Assembly (NCBI GenBank): GCA_028693335.1
Contig: JAQUVR010000001.1
Coordinates: 1-26,409 of the forward strand
DNA length: 26,409 bases
Reading direction: 5' to 3'
Source: Candidatus Iainarchaeum sp.
Lineage (GTDB): Archaea; Iainarchaeota; Iainarchaeia; Iainarchaeales; CSSED10-239
A program made the position numbers and the translations under genes. Shown here piece after piece: positions 1-21,552 of the stretch; positions within the stretch are counted from its first letter, which is position 1; the number at the start of each line of letters is the position of its first letter. The notes beneath the pieces are model-generated. The model did no database searches, was not told the DNA's origin, and saw only the letters and a list, made by a program, of their open reading frames with translations.

Positions 1-2275
1 GTTCATAATTAGTTCTATTACTTAAAATTGTGTTTATTTGAGCAATTGTTAAAGATGGATTTGTATTTGTATTATTTGGATCTGAATTATAAGGAATACT
101 ACTTGCTGTTCTTCTTTGAGTAAAATATGTTTTTGTTTTACCAATATCTTCTCCTCTTAAAATTGCTATTGATGCTGTATTTGATGTATAACAACCATTT
201 GCTGCTTTTTCTAAAGTTATATCACCTGCACCGCCACCTTCAGATATTGAATGATTTACAACAACAGTATATACTTTTTGATCACCTGTTTCTGGAGTTA
301 CTGTATAATTTACTGGATCTGTAAAATTTTGTGCAACACCAGATTCTGGATTAACTGTTGCACCCTCTGAAATAGTAATTGTTGGTATTAAATTAGTTAC
401 ATCTGTTCCTTCTGGCAAAGTTACTTTTATTGCATTTTGTGGATTATTTATCACACCATTTACTTCATTAATTATAAAACTTGTAATTAAATTCCCAGTT
501 TGTGCTGTTTCATCGACATCAGCAACAACTGGAACTTCTTCTTTTAATACTCTTAATGTTTTTTGTGGATAAGTAAATGTTTGTGTTTCTTCTGTTGGTG
601 TTTCTATACTTGGTAAATTACAACTTGGACAGAAAAATCTTGCTATTTTTTTATTTATTTCATATCTTAAATAACTTAAATATAATTCTCTATTCATAAA
701 TTTTATTTGTGCACTTGTTACTAAAATATTAGTATCATCAATTTTTTGTAATGCTAAGAAATATTTTTCTTCCATTCTTGCTGCTCTTAACATAACATTA
801 TTTTCTGTAATTTGGTTACAGTTAACATTTGAAAGTGCATTAGAATCTTCTATATAATTATTTTCTTGAGTAAATTTATCAAAGAAAGTATTTATGTCTA
901 CTTGTGTATTTTGCCCTATTGATGTTATTAAATAACAAGTATTTTTATCACTATTAAAATCTTGTGGCAACACAAAATTTAGATCTAAATTATTTAATAC
1001 AACTGCAGGTCTATTGTAATTTAGATAGAAGATTGTCTTTTCTGGATTATAACTTAATTCAATTGGATCTTCTTTTGCTTCTATAACTTTATCTAATTGT
1101 TTTATGTGATAATTAATATTTATGGTATCATATAATTCTGCTTCTCTTTGTTCTTCTTCTGCTCTTCTTATTTGTTCTATTTCTTGACACAATTGCTCAT
1201 GTAATTCTGATATTGCTACTTCTCCTCTTGGCTCTCCTGCTCCAAGTCCAAAGTCACCAGTATATGGATTACATCTTGTTACTCTAATAGTATTACCAAA
1301 AACAGAAGATTCTTCACATTTGTATAAATAATCTCCTGGTTCTGCTGTTTTTGTTCTGCCATCACCAACAGGAACGCCATCTGCTAAACCTACTGGATAA
1401 CTTGGGTGTTCAACATATCCCAAATCTTTACATGCTTGTAAATGTGATTTAGTATTTGTTCCATTTGCCGTGCTATCGCCACCATTACCACCAGTGCCAC
1501 CTGCACCTGTTGAACCAGCACCACCAGTATCACCAGCGCCACCTGCACCTGTTGAACCAGCACCACTATCTTGGCTATCTGGATTTGTTTCCGGTGTTGT
1601 AGGTGTCTGAGCAGGTGTATTTAATTCTATATTAAATAGAGCTGCTGCATTTAATTTTTTGTAATTAGATTGGGTTGTGTTCGTAGTAAAATATGTTACA
1701 GCTCCATTACCAAGTTCAACATTGTGAGCACCATCTGTTGAAGCAGGATTTGTTGATTTAGCATACCAAATATCATTATATGATGAAGAATCAACATGTA
1801 CAAATGGCATAAATACAAAAACATCTATCATTTCTGACTTACATATATTACCTGTTAAATTAAATCTAACACCAGATGTTGTTTGATTACAATATTTATA
1901 AAAATAAATCCAATTATCATTTTCATATGTAGATCTATTACCTTGCTCCCACTTATTATTATTAACAAAAGATTTAAGTTTTGGGAATAAAACACTAATA
2001 GTATAATTACTATGTGCGATCATATAATGAGGACACAAATAATAAGTTCTTGGTGCATGAAAAATCCTGCCAATTAATTCTTCTTTTGGAGTAATAAGGG
2101 GGGTATTTTTTAATCGAATAGTAACAGAACAAGTATTTTCTCCAGTTATTTGTGTTGTTACTGATTCTATTCCATCTATTCCTCTTACATCCCCAACTTT
2201 TGCTGCAAATACATTTGATCCTAAAACAAGCACCATCATAAACATTGATATTAATAAAATAATTTTTTTATTCAT
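1..2275 (-). CDS. Secreted modular surface protein, 3' end beyond window (signal peptide, unknown N-domain, Gly-rich linker, conserved 4-Cys module, conserved middle module, Ig-like YTVT module)
   Basis: Missing from the ORF track only because its stop lies left of position 1. I translated the minus strand by hand from ATG 2275-2273 to position 2 and met no stop; an in-frame TAA sits just upstream (2281-2279). N-terminus MNKKIILLISMFMMVLVLGSNVFA looks like a signal peptide. The core ...GYVEHPSYPVGLADGVPVGDGRTKTAEPGDYLYKCEESSVFGNTIRVTRCNPYTGDFGLGAGEP... and ...NLDLNFVL...YLRYEINKKIARFF are shared with the neighbouring gene. The tail has ...FTDPVNYTVTPETGDQKVYTVVV. Confidence 0.8.
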   Translation of the reverse strand, partial: MNKKIILLISMFMMVLVLGSNVFAAKVGDVRGIDGIESVTTQITGENTCSVTIRLKNTPLITPKEELIGRIFHAPRTYYLCPHYMIAHSNYTISVLFPKLKSFVNNNKWEQGNRSTYENDNWIYFYKYCNQTTSGVRFNLTGNICKSEMIDVFVFMPFVHVDSSSYNDIWYAKSTNPASTDGAHNVELGNGAVTYFTTNTTQSNYKKLNAAALFNIELNTPAQTPTTPETNPDSQDSGAGSTGAGGAGDTGGAGSTGAGGTGGNGGDSTANGTNTKSHLQACKDLGYVEHPSYPVGLADGVPVGDGRTKTAEPGDYLYKCEESSVFGNTIRVTRCNPYTGDFGLGAGEPRGEVAISELHEQLCQEIEQIRRAEEEQREAELYDTININYHIKQLDKVIEAKEDPIELSYNPEKTIFYLNYNRPAVVLNNLDLNFVLPQDFNSDKNTCYLITSIGQNTQVDINTFFDKFTQENNYIEDSNALSNVNCNQITENNVMLRAARMEEKYFLALQKIDDTNILVTSAQIKFMNRELYLSYLRYEINKKIARFFCPSCNLPSIETPTEETQTFTYPQKTLRVLKEEVPVVADVDETAQTGNLITSFIINEVNGVINNPQNAIKVTLPEGTDVTNLIPTITISEGATVNPESGVAQNFTDPVNYTVTPETGDQKVYTVVVNHSISEGGGAGDITLEKAANGCYTSNTASIAILRGEDIGKTKTYFTQRRTASSIPYNSDPNNTNTNPSLTIAQINTILSNRTNYE
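1489..1566 (-). repeat. Two copies of a 36-nt GC-rich unit at 42-nt period, encoding a Gly/Ala/Ser/Thr linker
   Basis: caccagTgccacctgcacctgttgaaccagcaccac (1489-1524) and caccagCgccacctgcacctgttgaaccagcaccac (1531-1566) differ at one base. On the sense strand they encode GAGSTGAGG twice, 14 aa apart. Confidence 0.85.
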
Positions 2276-2375
2276 CTTTTAATCTTTCCGTAAATTTTTT
2301 ATCTTTTGATTAATATAATTGATATATTAACTAATTATAGTTATTACTTTTACAATTATATATATTATATAATAC

Positions 2376-2400
2376 CTTAAACATTTATAAATCTATCCAA
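2376..2400 (-). promoter_or_regulatory. Conserved TATA-like upstream element of gene 1..2275
   Basis: cttaaacatttataaa + tctatccaa is nearly identical to 4260-4284 upstream of the paralog. It contains TTTATAAA about 109 nt upstream of the ATG. Confidence 0.3.
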
Positions 2401-2460
2401 GAGATTTTACTCTAATTAAATTGTTTTTTTTATTATAATAAAAATTTAGAAAAAAAGATC

Positions 2461-3819
2461 TTAACAATAGTTTGTTGTCTGACAACAATTTTGTCGTCTA
2501 TTGCTTGCAGTTATATAATTGCCATTACAATTAATTTCAGAAGTATCTACATTAGTTATTCTTACATACTGAAATGGAAATCTACGTGTTCCCCTATTAT
2601 TTATTTTTATTCCAGTTTCTATACAATCATATTTTACTCTTGTCCCTGGTCTTGGTGCATGTATATATTTATGACAACCTAGTTCTGTTTTAGAATATAT
2701 TCCAACATGACCAAAAACACCGTGACTAGTATTAAAGAATAATATATCTCCTGGTTGTAATTGATCTAAATCTGTTCTATTATTTATAATTCCTGATATT
2801 CCTGTTATGTGCCCTTTATTATTTTCTACAAAATCAAGAACTGCACAACCATTTTCAAACATTTCTTTACAGCCTGTTGATCCATCAATATATCCAAGAT
2901 CTCTTAATACAACATAAGGTAAACCAATACAATCAAGTCCACTTTTTAAACGATAATTTGTTGGACCAAAAGTATAACCATTTCTACCACCAAAAACATA
3001 TCTTGTGCCTAAATAATTTGTTGTTCTTTCTATTATTTGTATTGCAATATTATTATTTACAATTAAAGTGGTGTTATTTAATCTATTAATAACATCTCTT
3101 TGATCTTCAATATCTACATCATTATCTTGGGATACAGGTCTATTTTCTTGTAGATCTGAAACTGCAATTACTTCTGGATCTATTTCTGATTCTGGATTTT
3201 CTACTATGTGGTTTTCAAAGTCTGTTAAACTAATATCTTGAAAACTAAATCTATTAATTCCATTAATATTAATTATTTCTGGAAATACTGTGCTAGATGT
3301 AGAAAAAAAGTTTGCAATTTTTTTATTTATCTCATATCTTAAATAGTTTAGATCTCTTGGTATTAGTTTTATTTGAGCAGTTGTAATTAAAAGATTTCTG
3401 GAATCTATTTTTTGTGCAACTAAAATAAATTTATCTTCTGTTTTTGAGTTTCTTAGCATAATGGTGTTATCTATTATTTTATTACAATTAACATTTAAAA
3501 TTTGATTAGAATTTTCTAAGTAATTTTCTTCTTCTAAAAATTTAGTTAGAAAAAGATCTATTTCTTCTTGTGTATTTTCTCCAAGTTCAGTAATAAGATA
3601 ACATGTGTCTTTTTGAGAACTAAATTCGGCGTCTAAAACAAAATTTAGATCTAAATTATTTTCTGTGCTTGATGATGGATCATAAACTAAATAAAAAATA
3701 TTTTTATCATTATTACTATTTAATTCATTTATCGGATCTTTAAGATCTATTATTTTAAGGAATGGTTTTTTATAAAAACTGATATTTGTTAAATCAATAT
3801 CAACAATTCCTTTCTTGTT
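2461..3819 (-). CDS. C-terminal part of frameshift-split secreted protein: conserved middle module + NlpC/P60 peptidase + Cys-rich tail
   Basis: The frame is open from 3819 to the stop at 2461-2463. The only start codon is ATG 3459 (track ORF 2461..3459). The 120 codons upstream have no ATG/GTG/TTG yet align with gene 1..2275 (NLDLNFVL, TCYLIT, NVNCN). The alignment continues after the ATG (QKID, AQIK, YLRYEINKKIANFF). NlpC/P60 motifs: YLGTRYVFGG, GLDCIGL (Cys), GHVGIY (His), YIHAP. Confidence 0.7.
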   Translation of the reverse strand, partial: NKKGIVDIDLTNISFYKKPFLKIIDLKDPINELNSNNDKNIFYLVYDPSSSTENNLDLNFVLDAEFSSQKDTCYLITELGENTQEEIDLFLTKFLEEENYLENSNQILNVNCNKIIDNTIMLRNSKTEDKFILVAQKIDSRNLLITTAQIKLIPRDLNYLRYEINKKIANFFSTSSTVFPEIININGINRFSFQDISLTDFENHIVENPESEIDPEVIAVSDLQENRPVSQDNDVDIEDQRDVINRLNNTTLIVNNNIAIQIIERTTNYLGTRYVFGGRNGYTFGPTNYRLKSGLDCIGLPYVVLRDLGYIDGSTGCKEMFENGCAVLDFVENNKGHITGISGIINNRTDLDQLQPGDILFFNTSHGVFGHVGIYSKTELGCHKYIHAPRPGTRVKYDCIETGIKINNRGTRRFPFQYVRITNVDTSEINCNGNYITASNRRQNCCQTTNYC

Positions 3820-4180
3820 CTAAATCTTCACATAATTGTTGATGTAATCTAGAAATTGCAATATCTCCTAATGGTTGACCAGCACCAACCCCATATTCTC
3901 CAGTATATGGATTACATCTTGTTATTCTTATATAATTACCAAATACAGAACTGATATGACATTTATATAAATAATCTCCTGGTGCCGCAATTTTTGTTCT
4001 GCCTCCACCAATCGGGATGCCATCTTTTAAGCCGATGGGGTATGTCTCATGTTCTCTATATCCATTATTTTTACAAAAATTTATATATTCTTTGAAATAT
4101 TCTTCTGATTCACTAGCGTCTATTAAATAAGTGATATTTATTAAAAATATTAAAAATAATATTAATATAATTTTCTTCAT
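3800..4180 (-). CDS. N-terminal part of frameshift-split secreted protein: signal peptide + conserved 4-Cys module
   Basis: The track ORF 3800..4228 starts at a TTG. The internal ATG at 4180 gives MKKIILILFLIFLINITYLIDA, a signal peptide. The body ...GYREHETYPIGLKDGIPIGGGRTKIAAPGDYLYKCHISSVFGNYIRITRCNPYTGEYGVGAGQP...LHQQLC matches gene 1..2275. It stops (TGA 3802-3800) where the paralog reads on. Confidence 0.7.
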   Translation of the reverse strand: MKKIILILFLIFLINITYLIDASESEEYFKEYINFCKNNGYREHETYPIGLKDGIPIGGGRTKIAAPGDYLYKCHISSVFGNYIRITRCNPYTGEYGVGAGQPLGDIAISRLHQQLCEDLEQERNC

Positions 4181-4259
4181 AAAATTATCTACTTTTTTTA
4201 AATATCTTTTAAACACAAATATCATCAACTTAACAATAGTTATTATAATTATTTTTGGT

Positions 4260-4284
4260 CTTAAACATTTATAAACATATCCAA
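4260..4284 (-). promoter_or_regulatory. Conserved TATA-like upstream element of gene 3800..4180
   Basis: cttaaacatttataaa + catatccaa; the 16-nt block is identical to 2376-2391. It lies in the divergent intergenic region shared with the CorA gene. Confidence 0.3.
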
Positions 4285-4336
4285 CAAAATATATTTATAT
4301 TTTAGACTTTTTCTAAATCTTAAAAGTGATCTTACC

Positions 4337-5299
4337 ATGATAGAAATATTAAAACCAACAGAAAATGGATTACAGATCCTAGATAGACCAACAAAAAATG
4401 CATGGATTAATGTTGTTAATCCAGATAGTCGCGAGATCCAATATCTATCAGAAATTTTAAAGATTAAAGAAATTGATTATCAAGAGTTTAAAGAAGATAT
4501 TAATTCTCTTCAAGATATGGAAGAAATTCCTTTTATGGAAAAATATAAACAAGAATATTTTATAATTACAAGAACACCACATAAATTAACAGCAACAGAT
4601 CCAGAAAGTAAATATCTTTCTGCTGTTGAGTATTTGACTTTGCCTCTTGGTATTATGATTAATAAGGATTACATAGTTACTATTTGTTTTAGAAATAATG
4701 AAATTATTGATCAATTAAAAGTAAAAAAGTTTAAGTTTACAAAAAGTTTATTATTATTAAAATTATTGTTAATTTCTTCTAAAACTTATCTAAAATATTT
4801 AAAAGAAATTGATAGAAAAATAAAAGTTATTGAAGAAAGATTTGAAGTTGTTCAAAAAAGTAAAGATATTTATGATTTGTTAGATCTTAAAAAATCATTA
4901 ATTTATTTTAACACATCTCTAAAAACAGATCAAATATTAATTGAAAAAGTTGCAAGAAATAAAGATTTTGTTGTTACTGAAGATGATAAGGATCTTATTA
5001 ATGATGTTATTGATGAAAATAAACAAGCTATTGTTACTACTGCAATATACAAAAACATTATTACAGACACTACAGATTTATTTAATTCTCTGACCAGTAA
5101 CAACTTAAATAAAATCATGAAACTTTTAACATCTATTACAATAGTAATAGCAATTCCAACAATGGTTGCTGGAATTTATGGAATGAATGTTCCATTACCT
5201 TTTGATCATCACCCTCAAGCATTTATTGTAGTTATGGCAATTATAATGCTATTTTCTTTTTTAGGTGTATTTGTTCTTTGGAAAAATAAAATGTTTTAA
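4337..5299 (+). CDS. corA: CorA-family Mg2+/Co2+ transporter
   Basis: 320 aa with a soluble N-terminal domain and two C-terminal TM helices. The signature YGMNVPLPF (GMN motif) sits at the end of TM1. Confidence 0.9.
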   Translation: MIEILKPTENGLQILDRPTKNAWINVVNPDSREIQYLSEILKIKEIDYQEFKEDINSLQDMEEIPFMEKYKQEYFIITRTPHKLTATDPESKYLSAVEYLTLPLGIMINKDYIVTICFRNNEIIDQLKVKKFKFTKSLLLLKLLLISSKTYLKYLKEIDRKIKVIEERFEVVQKSKDIYDLLDLKKSLIYFNTSLKTDQILIEKVARNKDFVVTEDDKDLINDVIDENKQAIVTTAIYKNIITDTTDLFNSLTSNNLNKIMKLLTSITIVIAIPTMVAGIYGMNVPLPFDHHPQAFIVVMAIIMLFSFLGVFVLWKNKMF

Positions 5300-5311
5300 A
5301 AATAAAAAAAG

Positions 5312-5333
5312 ATTCCTGCTTTTTTGCAGGAAT
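5312..5333. terminator. Hairpin between convergent genes, flanked by A-run and T-run (possible bidirectional terminator)
   Basis: attcctgc (5312-5319) / tttttt loop / gcaggaat (5326-5333) forms a perfect 8-bp stem. It is preceded by aaaataaaaaaa and followed by attatttttt. Confidence 0.45.
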
Positions 5334-5346
5334 ATTATTTTTTAAT

Positions 5347-5799
5347 TTACTGGAATAGTTTTACCATTTCTTTTTGAAATTGGAATAAATAGATTAAGAA
5401 AAATATCATTATTCCATAAAAAACTCCAATAATAAACATTGCAAGTCCAATAAAAAATGATGTAAACATTGCAAATATTGAAATTAATATTAGTATTGAA
5501 ACAAAAAATCCAGCAATATACAATGGAATCAGTAACATTATTTTTCCGAATTTTTTATAATTTGCAACACCGTATGCAACAATAAAAGCATATATTGCAT
5601 ATATGAAAAACATAATTGCAAATGCAATGGAAACACCACTTAAATTAACAATTTCTGGCATTAATTCTGACATTGATGTTAACATTTTTGGTAACAGTAA
5701 TAAGAATATCCCATATAAAGTAAAAATTATTCCTGCTCCTAAATTAAATAATGCCACAAATTTTGCTATAAATTGATTTAATGATAGATCTTTAAACAT
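5347..5799 (-). CDS. Small polytopic membrane protein, unknown function
   Basis: 150-aa ORF that is almost entirely hydrophobic, with 4-5 predicted TM segments. No motif recognised. Confidence 0.6.
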   Translation of the reverse strand: MFKDLSLNQFIAKFVALFNLGAGIIFTLYGIFLLLLPKMLTSMSELMPEIVNLSGVSIAFAIMFFIYAIYAFIVAYGVANYKKFGKIMLLIPLYIAGFFVSILILISIFAMFTSFFIGLAMFIIGVFYGIMIFFLIYLFQFQKEMVKLFQ

Positions 5800-5844
5800 A
5801 ATTTTTCTAAACCTCCAAGTTTTATTTATATATATTACATATAA

Positions 5845-6618
5845 CTATATAAATCTTTTTCCACCAATAAAAAAAATTGTTTTTTTTTCTAGAACATTAA
5901 GAGATTCTATTTTTTTAAATTTTAATGAATTATTTATTGGTTTTATATTGTTCTTACTAAACCATTTTTTTATTTCTTTTAATGTGTGATATGATTCATA
6001 TGGAACAGCATATCTATCATAAAGAGTAGAAATTGGTGCTTTTTTGAATTTTTTTGTAAATTTTGAAGTTAATAAAAAATTAATAATTTTTTCTGGATCT
6101 TTACTTATTAATGTTCTTAAAAAAAATCTTTGAATTCTATATCTTAGTCTAGAGTATTTATGATAAAGACCAATTACTATAATTCCATCATTTTTTAATA
6201 AAGAGGATATTTTTTTAAATCCTAAATAAGGGTTTTCTGTGTGGTGTAATACACCTAGACAAAAGATCAGATCAAATTTTTTTAGATCTAACAAATTATC
6301 TTTAATAATATCTTTTTTTTCAATTGTTATATTTGACAATTTTTCTTTCTTAACTTTTTTTTCTAATTCAGATAATTGACCTAAAGAAAAATCAACACTT
6401 ACAACTTCTTTTGCACCATTTTTTGCAAAAAATATTGATTTTTCTCCAGTTCCACAACCAATATCAAGTATTCTTTTTCCCATTAAATCTTTTTCTGTTA
6501 TATTTGCAGATCTTAGAATTTTTGTAATTATTTTTTGATTTGTTCTTTTTTGATTTGAAGTGTATTGATTTGCTTTTGGATATTGATGTAAATCGTAAAA
6601 TTCTTTTATTTTTTGCAT
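5845..6618 (-). CDS. Class I SAM-dependent methyltransferase
   Basis: Motif I ILDIGCGTGEKS, acidic residue after beta2 (VVSVDFS), and post-II FDLIFCLGVLHHTENP. Confidence 0.85.
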   Translation of the reverse strand: MQKIKEFYDLHQYPKANQYTSNQKRTNQKIITKILRSANITEKDLMGKRILDIGCGTGEKSIFFAKNGAKEVVSVDFSLGQLSELEKKVKKEKLSNITIEKKDIIKDNLLDLKKFDLIFCLGVLHHTENPYLGFKKISSLLKNDGIIVIGLYHKYSRLRYRIQRFFLRTLISKDPEKIINFLLTSKFTKKFKKAPISTLYDRYAVPYESYHTLKEIKKWFSKNNIKPINNSLKFKKIESLNVLEKKTIFFIGGKRFI

Positions 6619-6681
6619 ATTATTTTCGTTTTTATTTCTTTTGTATCATATATATTTTATAATGTTATAAAAAGATCATAT

Positions 6682-7887
6682 ATGAAAAATATTAAAAAAC
6701 CAATATTATTGTCTCCTGTTGCAAATTATGAAATGTTAATTGCAGCAATTGATGGGGGAGCTGATGCAGTGTATTTGGGTGTTAAGGGCCAAAATATGCG
6801 AGAATCTGCAAAAAACTTTTCAATAAAAGATCTTAAAAAAATTTCAAATATCGCTCATAAATCAAATGTAAAGGTTTATCTTACATTAAACACTATCTGC
6901 TTTGATGAAGAAATAAATAAAATAAAAAAAACATTAATATCTGCAAAAAAAGCTAAAATAGATGCAATTATTTCTTGGGATCTAGGTGTTATTAAATTAG
7001 CAAAGGAACAAAAATTAGAGGTCCATCTAAGCACTCAAGCAAGTGCAAGTAATTCTATTGCCATTAGTGAATATAAAAAATTAGGGATTAAAAGATTTGT
7101 TCTTGCAAGAGAATGTTCTTTAAATCAGATTAAAAAGATCATTAAAAACACAAACACAGAAATAGAAATATTTATTCACGGCGCGATGTGTGTAGCTGTT
7201 AGTGGAAGATGTTTTTTATCTCATTTTCTTTATGGTCAATCTGCAAATAAAGGTAAATGTATTCAACCTTGTAGACGTGAGTATATAGCTACAGACATAG
7301 AAACAAATAAACAATTAGAGATACATAATAATTTCATATTAAGCCCTAAAGATCTGTGCGCCCTACCATTTTTAGAAAAAATTCTAGATCTCAACATCTG
7401 TGCTTTAAAGATTGAAGGAAGAGGAAAGTCTCCTGAGTATGTAAAAATAGTAACTTCTGTTTATAGGGAAGCAATAGATCTATATTTTGAAAAAAAACTA
7501 ACTTCTAAAAAAAAAGAAGAACTATTTGAAAAATTAAAAACTGTTTATAATAGAGATTTTAGTGATGGCTTTTATTTAGGCAGACCAATAAATGAATGGA
7601 CAGATATTAGAGGATCAAAAGCTACAAAAACAAAAACAAGAATTGGAAAAGTTACAAACTATTTTAGAAAAATTGATGTTGCAGAGATTAAGATTGAGGC
7701 AAGATCTTTAAAAATTAATGATAATATCCTAATTATCGGGCCAACTACAGGGGTTTTAGAAGAAAAAATTAAAGAGATACAATTATCTAAAAATAATTTT
7801 ACAAAAATTGCAAAAAAAGGAGATCTTGTTGCAATTAAGGTTAAAAAAAGAGTAAGAAGAAATGATGAAATTTATTTATATGGGTGA
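6682..7887 (+). CDS. Peptidase U32 family protein (collagenase-like / RNA or quinone hydroxylation family)
   Basis: U32 signature EIFIHGAMCVAVSGRCFLS followed by KGKCIQPCR. A C-terminal beta-barrel-like segment is present. The start is moved from the track TTG at 6613 to ATG 6682 (MKNIKKPILLSPV), which removes a hydrophobic extension overlapping the divergent gene. Confidence 0.9.
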   Translation: MKNIKKPILLSPVANYEMLIAAIDGGADAVYLGVKGQNMRESAKNFSIKDLKKISNIAHKSNVKVYLTLNTICFDEEINKIKKTLISAKKAKIDAIISWDLGVIKLAKEQKLEVHLSTQASASNSIAISEYKKLGIKRFVLARECSLNQIKKIIKNTNTEIEIFIHGAMCVAVSGRCFLSHFLYGQSANKGKCIQPCRREYIATDIETNKQLEIHNNFILSPKDLCALPFLEKILDLNICALKIEGRGKSPEYVKIVTSVYREAIDLYFEKKLTSKKKEELFEKLKTVYNRDFSDGFYLGRPINEWTDIRGSKATKTKTRIGKVTNYFRKIDVAEIKIEARSLKINDNILIIGPTTGVLEEKIKEIQLSKNNFTKIAKKGDLVAIKVKKRVRRNDEIYLYG

Positions 7888-8591
7888 TTAAATAATTTAT
7901 CTCTTGTTGCCACCCTTTTTTTTTTAATTTTTCCATTTTTATTTATTTTTATTTTGGCTAGATATGATGCCAAAATCAAACCAGTCATAATTCCTGTTCC
8001 ACCACCAACAACACTCCCCAACATATTTGATTCTCTTTGCACATATTGAAGCTCACCATTTGGTATCTGCTTTACAACTGCTTCAATTCTTTTTATTTGA
8101 TCTGGAGTTAATTCATTATATACTTCTACTAGTGGTTTATTAACAAAATGCTTTTCCCAAACTTGCCCCCCAGCTTCTTTGAGCACTCTTTCGATTTCTA
8201 TTATCTGGGATTTATATTCTAATATTCTAAAAATATTGCCCATTCTTATTGGATCTAATGTGATTCTATCAATTTTTTGTGATTTACTATCCCAAAAATA
8301 AATTTCTCCTGGTTTTGATTTATTATTAAGAGTTGCTAATTTTGATTTTATTACTTTTTCTCTATTCTCTGGATAGATTGGTTTAGACACATGATAAATA
8401 TTTGTTGTTTTTGCAGACATGTTTTTTGAAATATTTGTTACTTGTTTTTTTGCTAATGAGCCTGTTAATAATGATGCACCAATAACTCCAGCAGCTGCAG
8501 CAATTCTTAACTTTGTTTTTAATGGCATCTTAAATTTTGTTTTCTTTTTTTGTGGTGGTTTTGGTGTTACTGGTTTATTTATTGGTTTCAT
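7872..8591 (-). CDS. Hypothetical membrane protein (basic N-terminus, TM near each end)
   Basis: 239-aa ORF. KPPQKKKTKFK is followed by AAAAGVIGASLLTGSL, and there is a C-terminal GSVVGGGTGIMTGLILASYL. No family recognised. Confidence 0.55.
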   Translation of the reverse strand: MKPINKPVTPKPPQKKKTKFKMPLKTKLRIAAAAGVIGASLLTGSLAKKQVTNISKNMSAKTTNIYHVSKPIYPENREKVIKSKLATLNNKSKPGEIYFWDSKSQKIDRITLDPIRMGNIFRILEYKSQIIEIERVLKEAGGQVWEKHFVNKPLVEVYNELTPDQIKRIEAVVKQIPNGELQYVQRESNMLGSVVGGGTGIMTGLILASYLAKIKINKNGKIKKKRVATRDKLFNHPYK

Positions 8592-8679
8592 AATTTTTCC
8601 TATTATAATTTTTTTATTACTTTTATATTTATATCATATAACAAAACTGTTTATATTTATTTTCTTTTCTATCTTTTTT

Positions 8680-10167
8680 ATGACTATCACTATGAATCAA
8701 ACAAAAAAAGAGATATTATCTCTCCTTGAAAAATCAATATTAAAATTAACAGAAGATAAATCAAAAAAATATGGTTTATTGTTAAGTGGTGGAATTGATT
8801 CTTCAATACTTGCCATAATTCTTAAAAATAATAAAATTAAATTTAATTGCTTTTTTGCATATGTAAAAGATACAACTGACCCTAAAGATCTTTATTTTGC
8901 AAAAAAATTAGCAAAGGATTTAGATCTAAATTTAGAAATCATTTCTTGTGAGAAAAAAGAATTACCTATTATTATCAAAGATATTATAAAAATTACACAA
9001 TCCACTAACCCAATAAATGTTGGTGTTGCAATTCCTGGATACCTTTGTGCAAAAAAAGCAAGATCTAAAAAAATCAATATCCTTTTTTCTGGTCTTGGTA
9101 GTGATGAATTGTATGCAGGATATCACAAGTTTAGATTAACTAAAAACATTAAAGAAGAAACAAAAAAATGCTTAGATAATCTTCAAAAAGATAATCTAAA
9201 TAGAGATCAATCTATTGCCAATTATTTTAATATGTCTGTTGAGTGTCCATATCTTGATAAAGATTTAATAAATTATTCTTTAAATATTGATCCAAAATAT
9301 TTAATTTCAAAAACCCAAAATAAAATCATAATAAGAGAAATAGGTAAAGATCTTGGGCTTACAACAGAATTTTTTGAAAGAAAAAAAATTGCTTGTCAAT
9401 ATGGTAGTAATTCTGATAGGGTTATTGAAAAATTAGCTAAAGAAAATAGATTTAAAACAAAAACAGATTATCTAAACTCTCTGTCAAAAAAAAACATTGG
9501 TGCTCTTTTTTCTGGTGGTAAGGATAGTAATCTTTCTGTGTTTTTATTAAAAGACAAATATAATATTTCTTGTTTATTGTCTATAGTTCCAACATCTAAT
9601 GATTCCTACATGTATCAAAAACCTGATTTGAAAATATTAAAAGCTCAAGCAGATTGTTTGGATCTTCCATTATTAACACAAAAATCTAAATCTATTAAGG
9701 AAGCGGAGTTAAAAGATCTTGAAAAGTTAATAAAAACCGCAATTAAAAAATATAATATTACTGGTGTTGTTTGTGGTGCTCTTTTTAGTAATTATCAAAA
9801 AGAAAGGGTTTTAAAAATTTGTAATAAACTAAAAATAGAATTACATTCTCCTTTATGGCAAATGGATCAAGAAAAGGAAATAGAGTTATTATTAAATAAT
9901 AAATTTAAATTTATTGTGTGTAAGATTGCTGCCCTTGGATTAGATCAAAAATATCTTGGCAAAGTTATTTCTAAGGAAGATCTTATTGATTTTAAAAAAT
10001 TAAATAAAAAATATGGTTTTAATATTGCTGGAGAGGGAGGAGAGTATGAAACCATTGTTATTGACTCTCCTATGTTTAATAAAAAAATAGAGATCTTAGA
10101 TTATAAGATCATTATGGAAAATGATTTTACTGGTTTTATTGAAATAAAAAAAATAAAAAATCATTGA
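8680..10167 (+). CDS. Fusion of asparagine-synthetase-like PP-loop domain (no glutaminase domain) and Dph6/MJ0570-type PP-loop ATPase domain
   Basis: N-terminal half: LLLSGGIDSSILA and FSGLGSDELYAGY (AsnB synthetase-domain motifs). C-terminal half (from about 9490): GALFSGGKDS, GALFSNYQKERV, SPLWQ, GEGGEYETIVIDSPMF (diphthine-ammonia ligase / MJ0570 motifs). The start is moved from 8419 to ATG 8680 (8692 is also possible), because the track extension is hydrophobic and antisense to 7872..8591. Confidence 0.85.
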   Translation: MTITMNQTKKEILSLLEKSILKLTEDKSKKYGLLLSGGIDSSILAIILKNNKIKFNCFFAYVKDTTDPKDLYFAKKLAKDLDLNLEIISCEKKELPIIIKDIIKITQSTNPINVGVAIPGYLCAKKARSKKINILFSGLGSDELYAGYHKFRLTKNIKEETKKCLDNLQKDNLNRDQSIANYFNMSVECPYLDKDLINYSLNIDPKYLISKTQNKIIIREIGKDLGLTTEFFERKKIACQYGSNSDRVIEKLAKENRFKTKTDYLNSLSKKNIGALFSGGKDSNLSVFLLKDKYNISCLLSIVPTSNDSYMYQKPDLKILKAQADCLDLPLLTQKSKSIKEAELKDLEKLIKTAIKKYNITGVVCGALFSNYQKERVLKICNKLKIELHSPLWQMDQEKEIELLLNNKFKFIVCKIAALGLDQKYLGKVISKEDLIDFKKLNKKYGFNIAGEGGEYETIVIDSPMFNKKIEILDYKIIMENDFTGFIEIKKIKNH

Positions 10168-13028
10168 ATTAATATTCCGATTTTTTTAGGAAGTGCTTGT
10201 TTTGATTTAGGGTCCACACTTTCTTCTGCCAAGATAATTTCTAGATCTACTTCTAAATTCTTTTCTAAAAATTCTTTTATTTCTTTATAGAATAAATACT
10301 CTGTTTCTTGATCTTTAATATCTTCTAAAATCGCAGGTGTTTTTATTGCCCATGTAATAATTTTACTAACTTGTGGTTTATTTTGAGGATATTTTTCTAA
10401 GTATTTATTCATTAGTTCTTTAACATTTCTATTTTCTTTAATAATTATTTCTTCTTTAAGTTCATTAAATAAATTATAGATCCATTTCTCAGAAATAAAC
10501 AAAGTAATTTTTTTAGGATTTTCTAAATTTGCCATCTTTATTACATTTCTAATATCTGATGTTGTTTTCTCTATTGTTTGTTCATCTTTATCAAGATCTA
10601 GATTTATTTTACTTACATCTACTTTTGGAAATTCTGTTTCTGCAATGATATATTTATTGCCAACCATTTGATTTAGTTCTTCACTTAGATGTGGTGTAAA
10701 CAAACCCATTGTTTTTATCCATTCTATTATTAAATTCATTAAAACTTTTTTGTTTTTTCCATTTCTATTTCTATACCATAATAAATCATTATAGAAATTA
10801 AAATAGATTTCATCAGTTGCATTCTTAAATTCTATTCTATCCATAGAATTAATTATTTTTTCTAATCTTATATTAAACTGAGAGATCAACCAATCATCAA
10901 TTTTTTCTGATTCTTTTTCTATTAGTTGTTTATCATTAATTATTTCTTCAATAAATGAATATATCTTATCTATTCTTTGTTTATAATTTTTTAGATCATC
11001 TTCTTCAAAACTAATATCTACAAAAGGGTTTGCAATATTTGCATAAAATAGTCTAATAGCATCAACTGAATATCTCTTTGCTTCATCAGCAATACTTTTG
11101 ACTCCTCCTTTTGATTTAGATATTTTCCCTGATTTTGCAACAACCCACCAGTTTACAAAAATTCCTTGTGGGTGATATTTTTTTGGTAATATCCCAACAT
11201 GATTCATTAAAAATACTGGAAAATGAACTGTTTGATGTTCTTTTCCTCCAAGATTAATATCTAACGGGTACCAATATTCTACATCTTTTTTAATTTCTTC
11301 TAAAAGGTTAAAATCTATATCTGTTTTTTGAGAAACTTCTCTACTTTCTCCTTTATTCAAAAAAACATAGTCAAAAAATTCTTCTGTTAGCTGTTCTGCG
11401 TTTATTTTTCCATTATTTACATATAGACTAATTAAATAATAAATAGGGTAAAGAGTACTATCAGAAATTGGTTCAATAGTATAAGATTGATCAAAAGGCA
11501 ATTTTGTTCCAAGCCATGTTCCTTGTCTAGCACATGCTCTAGCATCAAACCAGTTTAGTATTTGTGGTAAATTTGTTTTAAATGTTTCTGGTAAGATATT
11601 CATTGTTTTTACATGATCTATAGTATCATTTGTTAATTTTTCATTAGAATAATCAATAAACCATTGATCATCTACTTTTTTAATTAAAACTTTCGATCCG
11701 CACCTGCAAATCACTTCTTCAGAGAGATCATAAAAAATATCTGCGTGATTTTCTTTGATTAGATCTTCTTTCATTAAATTTTTAGCATCTTCTACTTTCA
11801 TTCCTGCAAATTTGCCACAGTTTTCAAGCATAACTCCAGTATGAAATCCTTTTTTGTAAACTTCTTTTTTTGCATCTTCTAATTTTTCTATATCTTTTTG
11901 AGAATTAATATTTAATTTTTCACAGATCTCAATAGCAGGAAATTTTCCAAAATCTTTTGATTGTATTATTGAAATTGGTTTTATTTCTTTTATAACTTCA
12001 TAATCTAATCCAAAAGATTTACAATCTTCTGGAGATCTTTGTAAATCATATAAACCTATCCAATCAGCAGGAGCATCTGATGGTACAGATGTTACTATTC
12101 CAGTACCAATATTAGAATCACAAAAAGAAGATGGTAAAATAATTATTTCTCTATTGATAGCTGGGGCTAAACAGTATTTGCCAACAAGTTCTTTTCCATT
12201 TATCTGTCCAAGAATTTGTGTGTTTTCTTTTTGATATTTTATTTTTTCTGCAAATTCTTTACTTGCTATCCAAATTTCATCAACAACTTTTATTTTTACA
12301 TAGGTTTGATTATAATCTAACCAAACATTTGTTTGTCCAAACATTGTTTCTGGTCTTAATGTTGCTACAACTATGTATTGATTTGGTTCTTGATATTGCA
12401 ATTTTATTAAAGTATATTCATTTTTTTCAGCAGTTCCACCTTTAGAAAGATCCATTTCTGATGGATCTACTGCTACTGGCCCACATTCAACACATACTGT
12501 TGCATAATATGGTTTTTGTATTAATAGTTCTTTTTCTTTTAATTTCTTAAATTGCCATTCAATAAATTTATTATAATCAGGATTTGTAGTTACTGTAAAT
12601 CTTTGCCAATCACCAATAAACCCATAATCTCTATAATCAGTAATATATCTTTTTGAAAAAAAGTCAACAAATCCTTCTGGAGTTGATATTTTTTTAAGAT
12701 CCTCATCTGTTAAGCCCATTTCTTTATAATAATCAACGGTCTCTTTATGATTTTCACAAACTTTCTTTGCCTTAGCAACTGCTGCATTTCCTGATGCATG
12801 TCCTCCAGCTGGTAACAAAACATTATATCCTTGCATTCTTTTATATCTAGAAATAGCATCAGCATATGAAAATCCTCTCATATGGCCTACATGGTGAAAT
12901 CCTGATACTGTTAAATATGCCCAAATTATAAAATATTTTTTTTTATTTAGATCTCTTGATACTGAACCAATTTTTTTTGCATTCCAAATATTTTGCCATT
13001 TTTTTTCTGTGCTACTAAAGTCATACAT
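10161..13028 (-). CDS. leuS: Leucyl-tRNA synthetase, archaeal/eukaryal type
   Basis: HIGH-type motif FHHVGHMRG and KMSKS-type motif KISKSKG. N-terminus MYDFSSTEKKWQNIW. The track start at 13040 is a GTG lying inside AGGTGA, which sits 8 nt upstream of ATG 13028, so I prefer 13028. Confidence 0.95.
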   Translation of the reverse strand: MYDFSSTEKKWQNIWNAKKIGSVSRDLNKKKYFIIWAYLTVSGFHHVGHMRGFSYADAISRYKRMQGYNVLLPAGGHASGNAAVAKAKKVCENHKETVDYYKEMGLTDEDLKKISTPEGFVDFFSKRYITDYRDYGFIGDWQRFTVTTNPDYNKFIEWQFKKLKEKELLIQKPYYATVCVECGPVAVDPSEMDLSKGGTAEKNEYTLIKLQYQEPNQYIVVATLRPETMFGQTNVWLDYNQTYVKIKVVDEIWIASKEFAEKIKYQKENTQILGQINGKELVGKYCLAPAINREIIILPSSFCDSNIGTGIVTSVPSDAPADWIGLYDLQRSPEDCKSFGLDYEVIKEIKPISIIQSKDFGKFPAIEICEKLNINSQKDIEKLEDAKKEVYKKGFHTGVMLENCGKFAGMKVEDAKNLMKEDLIKENHADIFYDLSEEVICRCGSKVLIKKVDDQWFIDYSNEKLTNDTIDHVKTMNILPETFKTNLPQILNWFDARACARQGTWLGTKLPFDQSYTIEPISDSTLYPIYYLISLYVNNGKINAEQLTEEFFDYVFLNKGESREVSQKTDIDFNLLEEIKKDVEYWYPLDINLGGKEHQTVHFPVFLMNHVGILPKKYHPQGIFVNWWVVAKSGKISKSKGGVKSIADEAKRYSVDAIRLFYANIANPFVDISFEEDDLKNYKQRIDKIYSFIEEIINDKQLIEKESEKIDDWLISQFNIRLEKIINSMDRIEFKNATDEIYFNFYNDLLWYRNRNGKNKKVLMNLIIEWIKTMGLFTPHLSEELNQMVGNKYIIAETEFPKVDVSKINLDLDKDEQTIEKTTSDIRNVIKMANLENPKKITLFISEKWIYNLFNELKEEIIIKENRNVKELMNKYLEKYPQNKPQVSKIITWAIKTPAILEDIKDQETEYLFYKEIKEFLEKNLEVDLEIILAEESVDPKSKQALPKKIGILIQ

Positions 13029-13129
13029 GTTTTTTGTCACCTATATTATATCTAAATATTATATATAAATAATTAAAAATAAATTCTTTTTAAAAAAATA
13101 GAAACAATAAAAAAAAAGATTTAAAAAAA

Positions 13130-14823
13130 TCATTGTGGTAATGGATTTTGAGTATTTGTTATTAGATAAGGATAAGTTATATTTTCCTCAATATTCCAAA
13201 TATCTATTAAATTCCATTTATTAAAGGTATTTGCTGTCTTCATTAATTCTGTACTTAGTCCAATAATACCTTCTGCTTGATAATTATTTTGCCCAGATCT
13301 ATCAACATCCCAAAAACATTCCAGATAGGTGTTATTCATACCATCACTCCCAAAAAAACCACCCTGATTTTTATTTCCAGAAACAACAACAGCTGAATAG
13401 TTTTTTTCTAAAATATTATCTCTTGCACCACCAATAAATCCACCAACACCATCATCTCCAGTAACAGATCCAAAAGAATAATTATTTGTTCCAGTTACTA
13501 CCATTGCAAAACCAATAAATCCACCAATGTAATAGGCATCTCCAGAAACAGTAGTATTAGAATAACTATTAGAAATTGTGTCTTCAGCACTTAACCCAAT
13601 AAATCCACCAACTTCATAATTACCACACACTAATCCAGTTACTGATGTATTTTCAATTATGTTATACATGCTCTCTCCAATTAATCCACCAACATTAGCA
13701 CCACCTGTAACATTACAGTCTTCAATCCTTAGATTATTTATTTGAGCTAAATAACCACTAGAAAACAAACCGATTTTTCCATTAGAAGGTCTATTAATAT
13801 ATAAATTTTTAATTGTGTAATTTTGACCATAAAATCTGCCACCAAAAATTCCATCAGAGTGTGCAATTGGTAGCCAACCTTCTCCAGTTGTCCAAAGAGT
13901 TTTATTTAATGGATCATAATAACTTGAGTCATTTAGAAAATCAAGATTTCTCATAAGTGTATAAGATCTTAATAAGGTATCTGAATTTGTATCAATAAAA
14001 TCAAGATGTTCAAGATACCAAATTTCTCCATTTATTGGAACATCTGTTATTTCATCTGGAACATCAATTTCTACTATTACTAAATATTCTCTAATTGATT
14101 GATCTTGTGCAGTTACTGTATATGTAATAGGATTTGAAAAATCTTGACTAATTTCTGATTCTGGATTTATGGTTGCAAGGTTGTGTATTTCTATAATGGG
14201 TGTTAAATTCATTATATTTGCATCAGAGTCTATTAAAATATTAATTGTATTTAAATCAGAGTCTATTGTTGTTTGATTAATAATATTTAAAAAATCAAAA
14301 GAATAAATAATATTATTATTTGATTGTTGTGGATTTCTTAGTGTTTCTGGCAAATTATTTATATTAGGTAATGTAATATACTCTAAATTATCTGTTAAAA
14401 ACAACAAATTAAATTTATTTTCTGGTGGTAATTTTAATAAATCTATTGAGTTTGTAGATCCTGAATTAACAATTATTTGTTGATCTAAATATATTAATTG
14501 ATTAAAACTAGGATTATCTGATTGACTAATTATTTTATATGCAATAATATTTATTTGTTCTTTACTTGTATTAATATTTTTAAAAACAAGCTTATAATTA
14601 GGGAATAATTTTACAACAATAAATGGTTCACTAAATTTTACAGATTTTGGGTAATCTAGTTCCATTTCTTTTATGGTTTCGTCTGTTATTGTTTTGCCCC
14701 AACCTAAAATAATACTAACTAAAATTACTGAAATTATAATTAAAAAAATAACACCAATTATTGGAGATAGATTCTTAATTTTAAATTTTTTTTTGGTTTT
14801 TAGATTATTTTTTTTTTCTTCAT
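13130..14823 (-). CDS. GLUG-repeat extracellular protein with N-terminal signal-anchor; needs a -1 shift (or one extra A) in an A10 tract
   Basis: Track ORF 13130..14665 (MELDYPK...). The same frame stays open upstream to 14842 with no start codon, and encodes KKKFKIKNLSPIIGVIFLIIISVILVSIILGWG (a TM segment). ATG 14823-14821 is one frame off, with A10 in between. The body has six VGGFIG/VGGLIG/QGGFFG repeats about 27 aa apart (GLUG motif) plus an Ig-like ...FSNPITYTVTAQDQSIREYLVIV. Confidence 0.75.
14808..14817 (-). repeat. A10 homopolymer (sense strand) between ATG and signal-anchor of the GLUG protein
   Basis: The plus strand has 10 consecutive T at 14808-14817. The sense strand reads atg aag aaaaaaaaaa taatctaa. 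Confidence 0.9.
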
Positions 14824-14838
14824 AGTCTCTTGTCTTAT

Positions 14839-15822
14839 TTAATTAAAATTTGAAAGATTTTTTTCTTTTTTTTTCTTATAAATCAAATAAATACCAACCA
14901 ACAACAAAATAAGTCCAACACCAAATATCACAGATTTAGATGGGGTTAATGTAACTAATGCTGTTGCTTTACTCTTTAGATCTGTCTTATCTGATAGATC
15001 TTGCTTTACTTGCTGAGTATTTGGAGTATTTGTTTCTATTTCTGTGTTGTTATTATCTGAATAGTTATTGTTTATTTTTCTTCGTGCTTGATTATTATAA
15101 ATATCTCTTAAACTAGTAACTATTGATTGATTTGTGTCATTAGTAGAAATTGGCCCAAATTCTTCTAAATTTATATTTTGATTATTTGTATTTGTTAATT
15201 TTGGGTCTTGGGTTTTATCTATTTTTACTGTATCGACAAAAACTAATTTATTAATATTTGAATCAAAAGATATTGCAGGGGTAGTAACAATTAACAAATA
15301 AACATTTGTTTTTCCTGGATTTAGATCTAGGTGTGCAATTAATTGATTTTCTGAAAAATAATAATTATTGGTATTTTTAAAATAACAAAGATATTTTTCA
15401 TTTGTCCCATCTTTATTAGAAACAATTATTCTTTGATCATTATATTTTAGAATATTTCCATTTTTTGTAGAACAGATTTCAGAAGATAATTCTTCTGCAA
15501 AATAAATTGCGATTTGATCTTTTTGTTTTTCTGTAATATTTAGATTTAATTCATATTTTGCAACAACAGAATAATCTAATTTGTTTTCAAAATCGTATCT
15601 AGATATTATTGATTGACCTCCGATTATGTCTATATCATTTTTCTCTCTAATAATTATAGATTCTGGGCTAATTTTAAAATTTGTGTTTAATTCCAGGGCT
15701 ATTGGTGAAATTATATTCACACTATATGTATCTGTATTTAATGTATAATATTGCTCTTCTGCAGATACATTAAAAACACAAAAAATAAATATTAATATTC
15801 CAAATATTTTTATAAAATTCAT
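14839..15822 (-). CDS. Secreted, C-terminally membrane-anchored surface protein, unknown family
   Basis: Signal peptide MNFIKIFGILIFIFCVFNVSA, an Asn/Thr-rich linker, and a C-terminal TM VIFGVGLILLLVGIYLIY followed by KKKKEK. Confidence 0.65.
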   Translation of the reverse strand: MNFIKIFGILIFIFCVFNVSAEEQYYTLNTDTYSVNIISPIALELNTNFKISPESIIIREKNDIDIIGGQSIISRYDFENKLDYSVVAKYELNLNITEKQKDQIAIYFAEELSSEICSTKNGNILKYNDQRIIVSNKDGTNEKYLCYFKNTNNYYFSENQLIAHLDLNPGKTNVYLLIVTTPAISFDSNINKLVFVDTVKIDKTQDPKLTNTNNQNINLEEFGPISTNDTNQSIVTSLRDIYNNQARRKINNNYSDNNNTEIETNTPNTQQVKQDLSDKTDLKSKATALVTLTPSKSVIFGVGLILLLVGIYLIYKKKKEKNLSNFN

Positions 15823-18254: not shown

Positions 18255-18965
18255 ATGGTAAAAACTCTTGATAAAAAAATAGTTGTTGAACTGAAAAATG
18301 CATATAAAATCTATTGTATGGGTTCTGTTTGTGTAAATGCTTTAAATGGAGTAGATCTAAAAATCACAAAAGGAGAGTTTGTGTCAATTATGGGACCAAG
18401 TGGTTCTGGAAAATCAACAATGATGCATATTATTGGTGCTTTAGATCTTGCTACTTCTGGAAAGGTGTATATAGATAACATTGATCTATCAACATTAAAT
18501 GAAGATCAATTATCTATTATTAGAGGAAAAAAAATAGGATTTGTTTTTCAAGATTTTAATCTAATACCAACATTAACAGCTCTTGAAAATGTTATGCTTC
18601 CTATGCTTTTTCAAGAAGATAAGTTAGATGATAAACATAGAGAAAATCATTGTAAAGGTTTATTATCTTTAGTCGGGTTAGGTGATAGAGTACATCACAA
18701 ACCATCAGAACTTTCTGGTGGTCAACAGCAAAGAGTGGCAATTGCAAGATCATTAGTAAATAGTCCAGAAATTGTTCTTGCTGATGAACCAACAGGAGCA
18801 TTAGATTCTAAATCTAGTGAAGAGATTATGGATCTATTAGTTGATTTAAATAAAGAAGGAAAAACAGTCATTATTATTACTCATGATAAAAATGTTGCAA
18901 AATATACAAAAAGAAATATTGCTCTTAAAGATGGAAAAATTGTAGAAGATAAAACAAAAGAATAA
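18255..18965 (+). CDS. ABC transporter ATP-binding protein, MacB/LolD-type
   Basis: Walker A GPSGSGKST, Q-loop FVFQDFNLIPTLTALENV, signature LSGGQQQRVAIARSL, Walker B VLADEPTGALD. Confidence 0.95.
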   Translation: MVKTLDKKIVVELKNAYKIYCMGSVCVNALNGVDLKITKGEFVSIMGPSGSGKSTMMHIIGALDLATSGKVYIDNIDLSTLNEDQLSIIRGKKIGFVFQDFNLIPTLTALENVMLPMLFQEDKLDDKHRENHCKGLLSLVGLGDRVHHKPSELSGGQQQRVAIARSLVNSPEIVLADEPTGALDSKSSEEIMDLLVDLNKEGKTVIIITHDKNVAKYTKRNIALKDGKIVEDKTKE

Positions 18966-18967
18966 TT

Positions 18968-20167: not shown

Positions 20168-20232
20168 TTTTTATAAAAAAGAAAACATATAAAAAACAAA
20201 AAAACAAATAATATTTAATGGAGGAAATAATT

Positions 20233-21507: not shown

Positions 21508-21552
21508 TTTTTTTCTTCTTTTATTTTTTTAAAAAGAAAAAAGTGTAATTTA

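Follow-up and report, generated by a model that had tools for sequence, protein, structure and literature searches.

The subject of this study is a pair of adjacent genes near the start of contig JAQUVR010000001.1, of which positions 1 to 26,409 (26,409 nucleotides, nt), hereafter the window, were analysed. The left gene (1..2275) and the right gene (2461..4180) both lie on the minus strand, separated by 185 nt. They encode modular proteins, predicted to be secreted by a Sec-type route, that share a core without recognisable family, and they form a strain-variable locus in a DPANN-type archaeon of anaerobic digesters. On one side the locus borders on corA and on the other, as seen in longer contigs, on a small membrane open reading frame (ORF), a FAD oxidoreductase gene and glmS. 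Beyond the window, at 748-1635 (minus strand) of the related contig L013, a toxin-antitoxin-like DUF3368/UPF0175 pair lies downstream of glmS.

The archaeal nature of the host is seen in the leucyl-tRNA synthetase (LeuRS) of the window, which matches the archaeal equivalog TIGR00395 with 792 bits, and in its Dph6, which matches the archaeal model; G+C content in 1-kb windows ranges from 18 to 34%, mostly 22-29%. A protein identical to the CorA of the window is present in NCBI nr (MDD3244522.1) under the label ‘Candidatus ainarchaeum sp.’. This name is missing from the taxonomy dump, which does list Candidatus Iainarchaeum (Iainarchaeota, kingdom Nanobdellati, i.e. DPANN); the label probably means that genus or a relative. 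The initial annotation, made from the letters of the window, had supposed a small-genome organism, and the archaeal LeuRS and Dph6 together with the CorA label bear this out. Seven contigs, from the same population or from sister populations, were retrieved through the exact sequence of the CorA protein. One of these, L013 (JASEYN010000276.1, 117 kb), belongs to metagenome assembly JASEYN, for which a high-solids anaerobic digester was sampled. The corA gene itself (4337-5299, plus strand; 4112-5074 in contig L014) encodes a protein that is 100% identical between the window and L014, in surrounding DNA that is only about 90.6% identical; all differences within corA must be synonymous, which points to very strong purifying selection.

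The left gene encodes, in order, a signal peptide, an N-domain, a linker, module i, a helix, module ii, an immunoglobulin (Ig)-like stretch and a C-terminal domain. Its 3' end is cut off by the contig end, which is also the window edge; the full-length orthologue, of 878 amino acids (aa), is found at 5304-7940 of L013, and the product encoded in the window is identical to P0001. The right gene passes from the signal peptide straight into module i, followed by module ii, an NlpC/P60 domain and a Cys-rich tail. The parts of the two genes are as follows.

1..2275, minus strand: left gene, ATG at 2275, open to the window edge, 758 of 878 codons
2204..2275, minus strand: signal peptide of the left gene (MNKKIILLISMFMMVLVLGSNVFA), with basic n-region, hydrophobic core and VFA-A site, by eye
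1610..2203, minus strand: N-domain of the left gene, aa 25-222, a hypervariable cassette, from the translation and comparison with L013
1451..1609, minus strand: linker, Pro/Thr-rich and then Gly-rich, with a tandem repeat inside, read from the translation
1187..1450, minus strand: module i, left copy, aa 276-363, with four invariant Cys
617..1105, minus strand: module ii, left copy, aa about 391-553, with CPSC at its end, from BLASTP and alignment
260..493, minus strand: DUF5018-type Ig-like stretch, aa 595-672, Pfam PF16410, E 5e-10
2..223, minus strand: ‘type B’ C-terminal domain, first 74 of 216 aa, 100% identical to L013
2461..4180, minus strand: right gene, interrupted by one extra base, from three-frame translation; intact in L013, L015 and L017
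3824..4093, minus strand: module i, right copy, 64% identical to the left copy by tblastn
3801..3820, minus strand: frameshift site, GAA CAA GAA A GGA ATT, extra base at ~3811, +1 nt in the alignment with five other assemblies
3286..3795, minus strand: module ii, right copy, with STSS replacing CPxC, 53% identical to the left copy by tblastn
2608..3003, minus strand: NlpC/P60 peptidase domain, aa 392-523, Pfam PF00877, E 4e-8
2464..2607, minus strand: Cys-rich C-terminal tail of the right gene, from the translation; conserved in L013, L015 and L017

At the start of both products, a stretch that resembles a signal peptide was recognised by eye rather than with a predictor: its n-region is rich in Lys, a hydrophobic core follows, and the cleavage-type site contains Ala. 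The two proteins then meet in their core: BLASTP aligns left aa 276-551 with right aa 30-296 at 152 identities in 277 positions (55%, E 3e-99), and tblastn finds no third copy in the window. The initial annotation had described these paralogous genes as sharing a core within otherwise differing architectures, and both points stand, with N-domain, linker and Ig-like stretch on the left, and NlpC/P60 domain and Cys-rich tail on the right. Four Cys are invariant in module i (7 of 7 sequences) and two in module ii (10 of 10), a pattern that would fit extracellular disulfides. Left-type and type A proteins (the latter described below) close module ii with CPxC, in whose place every right-gene allele has STSS, the two Cys having been lost as a pair; the positions to compare are 3286-3300 in the right gene and 617-631 in the left.

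Neither module matches Pfam even at E 10, nor any NCBIfam, PHROG or PDB profile. When a profile of the two core copies was run with HMMER against 1.84 billion representative proteins, there were six hits, namely the two products of this contig, P0003, P0004, P0005 and P0006. P0003 and P0004 carry module ii alone (E about 1e-20). We judged the last two unrelated: P0005 is a 1,963-aa repeat protein in which only core positions 55-80 (26 residues) are matched, eight times over, and P0006 is a 154-aa protein from a 121-kb root-metagenome contig of many small unannotated genes, apparently virus-like. Module i has no relative outside this species group. Its AlphaFold2 model (predicted local distance difference test, pLDDT, 73; predicted template modelling score, pTM, 0.63) consists of a helix at the N-terminus, five short strands and a long helix at the C-terminus, and Foldseek found nothing similar to it in PDB or BFVD. 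An RlpA/expansin-like double-psi barrel is unsupported for module i (best E 0.5-0.8, template modelling score at most 0.43), and an ACT-domain-like module ii is hinted at solely by a match to PDB 8pin that is too weak (E 0.014) to be taken up. The whole-core model made from two sequences is poor (pLDDT 44), rendering its Foldseek hits meaningless. The similarity between the paralogs survives proper alignment and the core hits no characterised family, in keeping with the initial annotation, which could place module i in no family; the same applies to module ii. Between left-gene alleles, the ratio of nonsynonymous to synonymous substitution rates (dN/dS) is 0.19-0.38 for modules i and ii, and the core is thus under purifying selection. 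The core is an orphan, lineage-restricted and selectively maintained unit of two modules.

The duplication that gave rise to the two genes is old rather than recent, because synonymous sites between the core copies are close to saturation. The codon alignment of the two cores has 67% nucleotide identity, and at identical residues the codons are identical in 69% of cases, compared to 63% expected from codon usage alone. A recent duplication or gene conversion had been proposed in the initial annotation on account of two exact DNA blocks of 24 and 25 nt. The blocks are correct as described (972-995 = 3638-3661; 1257-1281 = 3900-3924), yet the codon statistics speak against this dating: in simulations drawing the copies independently from codon usage, one exact run of at least 24 nt appeared in 18% of trials and two in 1.25%. 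We regard the two blocks, which fall in the two best-conserved peptide motifs, as a mild excess and see in them no sign of a recent event. Core sequences fall into three clades, left-type, right-type and type A, with identities of 83-95%, 93-96% and 71-84% within the respective clades, 55% between left and right, and 31-40% between either of these and type A.

The right gene carries, as read from its sequence, a bona fide wall-type peptidase domain with intact catalytic residues. The PF00877 match reaches 33.5 bits, compared to a cutoff of 23, and PDB entry 6b8c (NLP/P60) matches with E 7e-6, with the His motifs HV.I and YIHAP aligned. The catalytic set, Cys in DCIG, His in GHVGIY and His in YIHAP, is present and kept in every allele covering these motifs; the DCIG Cys motif, which follows an insertion, was located by eye. 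Among PHROGs, the best match of this part is PHROG 329, annotated as minor tail protein (E 1.8e-14), which is what one might expect if the gene were a lysin cassette derived from a virus or mobile element. We consider such an origin extremely improbable, since housekeeping genes in conserved order lie on both flanks, no relative was found in IMG/VR, and neither an integrase nor a structural virus gene turned up among the large window ORFs that were compared with Pfam or NCBIfam.

The reading frame of the right gene is broken in the window. On the minus strand of 2461..4228, one frame is open to a stop at ~3800 and the +1 frame is then open for 451 codons to the stop at 2461; as called, the products are a 126-aa piece and a start-less remainder, and skipping one base near 3811 restores 573 aa from the ATG at 4180. 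The extra base is missing at this site in L013, L015, L016, L017 and L018, and it sits within a short patch that diverges from all other alleles. Because the right gene is complete in L013, L015 and L017, where it is called whole with 587 aa, and open to the contig limit in L016, L018 and L019, the interruption is specific to the window assembly; it is a lesion of this strain or else an artefact of assembly where strain variants join. The frameshift, with its two truncated products, could also be taken as a sign of a decaying duplicate, with the right gene reduced to a pseudogene and the shared core to a functionless relic. This appears improbable to us in view of the 451 codons that remain open past the shift in a genome of 25% G+C, the intact gene in the three other contigs, the preserved catalytic residues, and a core dN/dS well below 1, an estimate made on left-gene alleles and not including those of the right gene.

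The ends of the left gene resisted assignment for the most part. Its N-domain has no Pfam match, even at E 10, and none among NCBIfam, PHROG or PDB profiles. Five N-domain alleles could be aligned, 14-33% identical to the window allele, with C..(I/L)D(V/F)(Y/F)(V/I)F as a common motif. The linker varies in length between alleles, and its Gly-rich part is encoded by a 42-nt tandem repeat at 1479-1566 (2.1 copies, 93% matches in the direct-repeat output of Tandem Repeats Finder). The Ig-like stretch scores marginally against PF16410, with 39.2 bits for a cutoff of 38.2 (38.3 bits for the L013 orthologue, 25.8 for that of L014), and is 37% identical to part of a further gene at 13130-14665 (minus strand), which encodes a second secreted-type protein with DUF5018 and GLUG motifs. 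Adjoining that gene, 14839-15822 (minus strand) encodes a 327-aa protein with a weak LPXTG-like match at its C-terminus. The full 216-aa type B domain has no match in Pfam, PDB, PHROGs or NCBIfam; a GH73-like reading of this C-terminus found no supporting hit in the same four collections and is a lead only.

Relatives of the locus reveal which parts are exchanged. Scans with a module ii alignment found one locus among GTDB species representatives, L003, in a metagenome-assembled genome labelled ‘uncultured archaeon’, and one more, L004, in JGI metagenomes; P0003 and P0004 sit on contigs L001 and L002. All four of L001-L004 share one architecture, consisting of signal peptide, N-domain, module ii with CPxC and a 270-aa ‘type A’ C-terminal domain, and all four are devoid of module i. 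In the core alignment, P0003, P0004 and the L003 gene have a module ii that is 35-40% identical to the left copy of the window. Gene order around the L003 gene is the same as in the window (LeuRS, Dph6/AsnS, U32 peptidase, methyltransferase, small membrane protein, CorA), with flanking proteins 52-91% identical between the two; leaving aside the small membrane protein, the other five reach 79-91%. For the secreted gene beside corA, identity between the window and L003 is a mere 30% or so and is confined to module ii.

The type A domain has no hit in Pfam, PDB, PHROG or NCBIfam. Its C-terminus (ES..G[VL]AQI..D.ETSLEIS) can be set in register with E. coli Slt, EmtA, MltC and MltD by eye only: hhalign of the type A domain with the four E. 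coli SLT domains gives E 0.14 and probability 0.4%, the reversed control E 0.43, and a search for SLT domains (PF01464) at E up to 1 had no hit among the window proteins, P0003 and P0004. The SLT-like reading is a lead and no more. Homology between the left-gene and type A C-termini, suggested by a MAFFT alignment, was rejected on an hhalign probability of 0.2%.

Closer to the window, the comparison with L013 is sharper. DNA identity is 97% over 1-1482 and 2204-15288, with no detectable DNA similarity over 1483-2203, the ~720-nt block that encodes the N-domain and linker. The two N-domains have 30% amino acid identity, and their dN of 0.76 and dS of 0.84 mark them as long-separated allelic lineages. 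The upstream break of identity falls at the end of the signal peptide and the downstream break, at 1482/1483, within the 42-nt linker tandem repeat, which is a likely recombination junction. L014, of a sister lineage, presents a further combination, with a third N-domain. Its flanks are about 90% DNA-identical to the window and its CorA protein is identical, and it has a single secreted gene, of 872 aa, without the NlpC/P60 gene. This gene is a chimera of a P0003-type N-domain (88.5% nt identity to L001) and a window-type core, Ig-like stretch and C-terminus (90.8% nt identity to L013). A seeming resemblance of ‘YFYNxDYAYGVP’ to the beginning of module i is an alignment artefact, as L014 holds both segments side by side.

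Altogether, there are at least three forms of the N-domain and two of the core plus C-terminus, which assort independently of each other, with the second gene present or absent. Recombination exchanges the N-domain between strains and, among more distant relatives, the C-terminal part as well. The constant core with swapped ends that the initial annotation saw in the two paralogs is therefore real and extends beyond them, the N-domain and the core-plus-C-terminal part being the independently assorting cassettes. A diversity-generating retroelement target was also considered for the N-domain and set aside: there is no reverse transcriptase among the scanned ORFs of the window, and the N-domain alleles differ along their whole length.

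Upstream of both genes lies a 25-nt element of TATA-box type (TTGGATAnnTTTATAAATGTTTAAG), with two matches in the window compared to 0 expected.

2376..2400, minus strand: promoter-like element, TATA-box type, TTGGATAGATTTATAAATGTTTAAG, upstream of the left gene
4260..4284, minus strand: second promoter-like copy, TTGGATATGTTTATAAATGTTTAAG, upstream of the right gene

The element is placed ~60-110 nt ahead of the start codons, implying long leaders, and a similar one is found upstream of the L003 orthologue at about 8922-8946. Its presence before both genes suggests that the duplication carried the promoter along, and it may serve as a conserved upstream anchor for recombination. We propose that cassettes would be exchanged by homologous recombination in the promoter/signal-peptide region on one side and in the repetitive Gly-rich linker on the other.

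A constant middle with variable ends, signal peptides and cassette exchange at the strain level bring to mind polymorphic toxins in the strict sense, in which a constant trafficking region would deliver variable C-terminal toxins into competitors and each toxin would be paired with a cognate immunity protein encoded next to it. The initial annotation had pointed to this resemblance, and its immunity-like small neighbours were accordingly looked for. Between the two genes no ORF of at least 50 aa is listed in the 185-nt gap, and within 10 kb there are no orphan or spare cassettes. A single small ORF is adjacent: it encodes 63 aa with two hydrophobic helices, follows immediately after the left-gene orthologue beyond the window edge (5091-5282 of L013, minus strand), and recurs in L001, L003, L004, L014 and L015. 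It is 92-100% identical after type A and type B C-termini alike, and because it does not change along with the C-terminal domain before it, it is unlike a cognate immunity gene. Moreover, variation is sharpest at the N-terminus rather than the C-terminus, and the sole identifiable end domain is a cell-wall peptidase and not a toxin; an archaeon without peptidoglycan needs no immunity to a murein peptidase. The resemblance is therefore not supported in the toxin-immunity sense, and we consider the strict polymorphic toxin explanation very improbable.

What, then, might these proteins do? We place at about even chances the possibility that they are modular secreted envelope-directed enzymes, resembling the modular peptidoglycan hydrolases of archaea and bacteria. 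In this scenario, the proteins would act outside the cell on the envelopes of other cells, where the target could be the peptidoglycan of bacteria or, possibly, the pseudomurein of methanogens that share the habitat. In this division of labour, the NlpC/P60 domain would cut peptide stems, the variable N-domain would provide target recognition, and the conserved core would be the common scaffold that either holds the enzyme on the producer surface or binds a wall polymer. Several aspects weigh against this scenario. NlpC/P60 is the only end domain identified, so that the exchange of enzymatic ends has been shown for a single enzyme; neither the C-termini of types A and B nor any of the N-domains has a significant match anywhere searched. 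The predicted core fold matches nothing, and a binding or anchoring role of the core is a proposal. NlpC/P60 enzymes can also use non-wall substrates, and the right gene of the window strain may be inactive through its frameshift. A more specific version, in which the N-terminal cassette determines partner specificity, recombination switches which cells are attached to or lysed, and the core is a lineage-specific scaffold, made of two new folds, that places interchangeable wall-cutting enzymes, we put forward tentatively and regard as unlikely at present.

The same anatomy could instead serve nutrient scavenging or remodelling of the own envelope, with wall debris being digested as a source of amino acids and sugars, the core anchoring the proteins to the S-layer, and the N-domain varying through exposure to viruses or grazers. 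Predicted secretion without a C-terminal membrane anchor, a conserved core next to an exposed variable N-domain, the further surface proteins of the window (DUF5018/GLUG, CARDB) and a digester habitat rich in dead biomass are all consistent with such a role. Nothing speaks directly against it. The wholesale swapping of a recognition-type domain together with the presence or absence of a lytic paralog would be more usual at loci of cell interaction, and we consider this alternative somewhat unlikely. Attack or attachment and scavenging or an own-surface role share the anatomy and differ in purpose alone, and we could not decide between these purposes.

Among known systems, the secreted modular peptidoglycan hydrolases of archaea, which kill bacteria and in which catalytic domains have been repeatedly replaced on a constant binding domain (PMC12352652), come close to the envelope-directed enzymes we propose. 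The haloarchaeal Woldo and Danwoldo are secreted, bacteria-killing proteins with common PG_binding_1 domains and different catalytic domains (PMC12352652). A signal peptide, predicted here by eye, would be shared with these as well as with lysostaphin and zoocin A, and a murein-type hydrolase from a murein-less archaeon with Woldo/Danwoldo; the likeness to the latter extends to two secreted paralogs per genome with a common non-catalytic module and differing end domains, and to the replacement of catalytic domains in evolution. In contrast to these proteins, the module kept constant here corresponds to none of the recognised binding domains, PG_binding_1, SH3b and LysM included, a single catalytic domain could be identified, an extra hypervariable N-terminal domain is present, and the proteins are known from sequence alone. 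No recognised wall-binding domain (LysM, SH3b, PG_binding, SLH, CWB etc.) was found in module i, module ii or the N-domain, and because their non-catalytic parts are not recognised binding domains, the proteins fall outside the formal definition of modular peptidoglycan hydrolases.

Extracellular murein-degrading proteins have been noted in small-genome DPANN archaea (PMC8204110). The extracellular lytic transglycosylase proteins of that study have in common with ours a DPANN-encoded, secreted, bacterial-type wall-degrading domain and a proposed role in attachment or attack; they differ in that here no SLT domain is detected in the window proteins, the proteins have 570-880 aa rather than up to 3,000 aa, and the phylum label is another one. 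With polymorphic toxin systems the locus shares a conserved region with exchangeable domains and recombination among strains, in contrast to which it has no co-varying immunity gene, its variation is mainly N-terminal and its end domain is a hydrolase of an extracellular polymer; no C-terminal domain belongs to a toxin family, the C-termini being NlpC/P60 or without assignment. The wholesale swap of a presumed recognition domain at sharp junctions, and an NlpC/P60 part nearest to a phage minor-tail family, recall phage receptor-binding proteins and tail lysins, from which the chromosomal housekeeping context, the predicted Sec signal peptides, and the lack of virus genes and of relatives on virus contigs set these genes apart.

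A few other features of the window deserve mention. At 18255-22773 (plus strand), an ABC ATPase and two MacB/FtsX-type permeases with a CARDB-domain protein between them may form an export or surface module. The AsnS/Dph6 fusion ORF at 8419-10167 (plus strand, 582 aa) overlaps a 239-aa ORF at 7872-8591 (minus strand); in L013 AsnS/Dph6 is called with 495 aa, placing the start in the window probably further downstream. At 25875-26372 (minus strand), a 165-aa ORF matches only the C-terminal part of adenine-specific DNA methyltransferases of the CcrM/PRK11524 type and may be a truncated gene.

To our knowledge, the means by which DPANN archaea recognise and breach their partners are largely unexplained, with almost no molecular determinants identified. 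The locus described here offers a testable candidate, in which a murein-type peptidase, predicted to be secreted, is linked to two domain families without known occurrence elsewhere, and the natural allele swaps point to the part that likely carries specificity. Enzymes of this kind would be overlooked in any survey of archaeal peptidoglycan hydrolases that makes a known binding domain a requirement. If the core is a new wall- or S-layer-binding module, it would provide a further targeting domain for engineered lysins, and if the N-terminal cassette does determine specificity, the locus would represent a cellular counterpart of the swapping of receptor-binding proteins in phages. The locus contributes two orphan domains and, at a site where a DPANN archaeon may interact with its partners, a domain-swap experiment carried out by nature.

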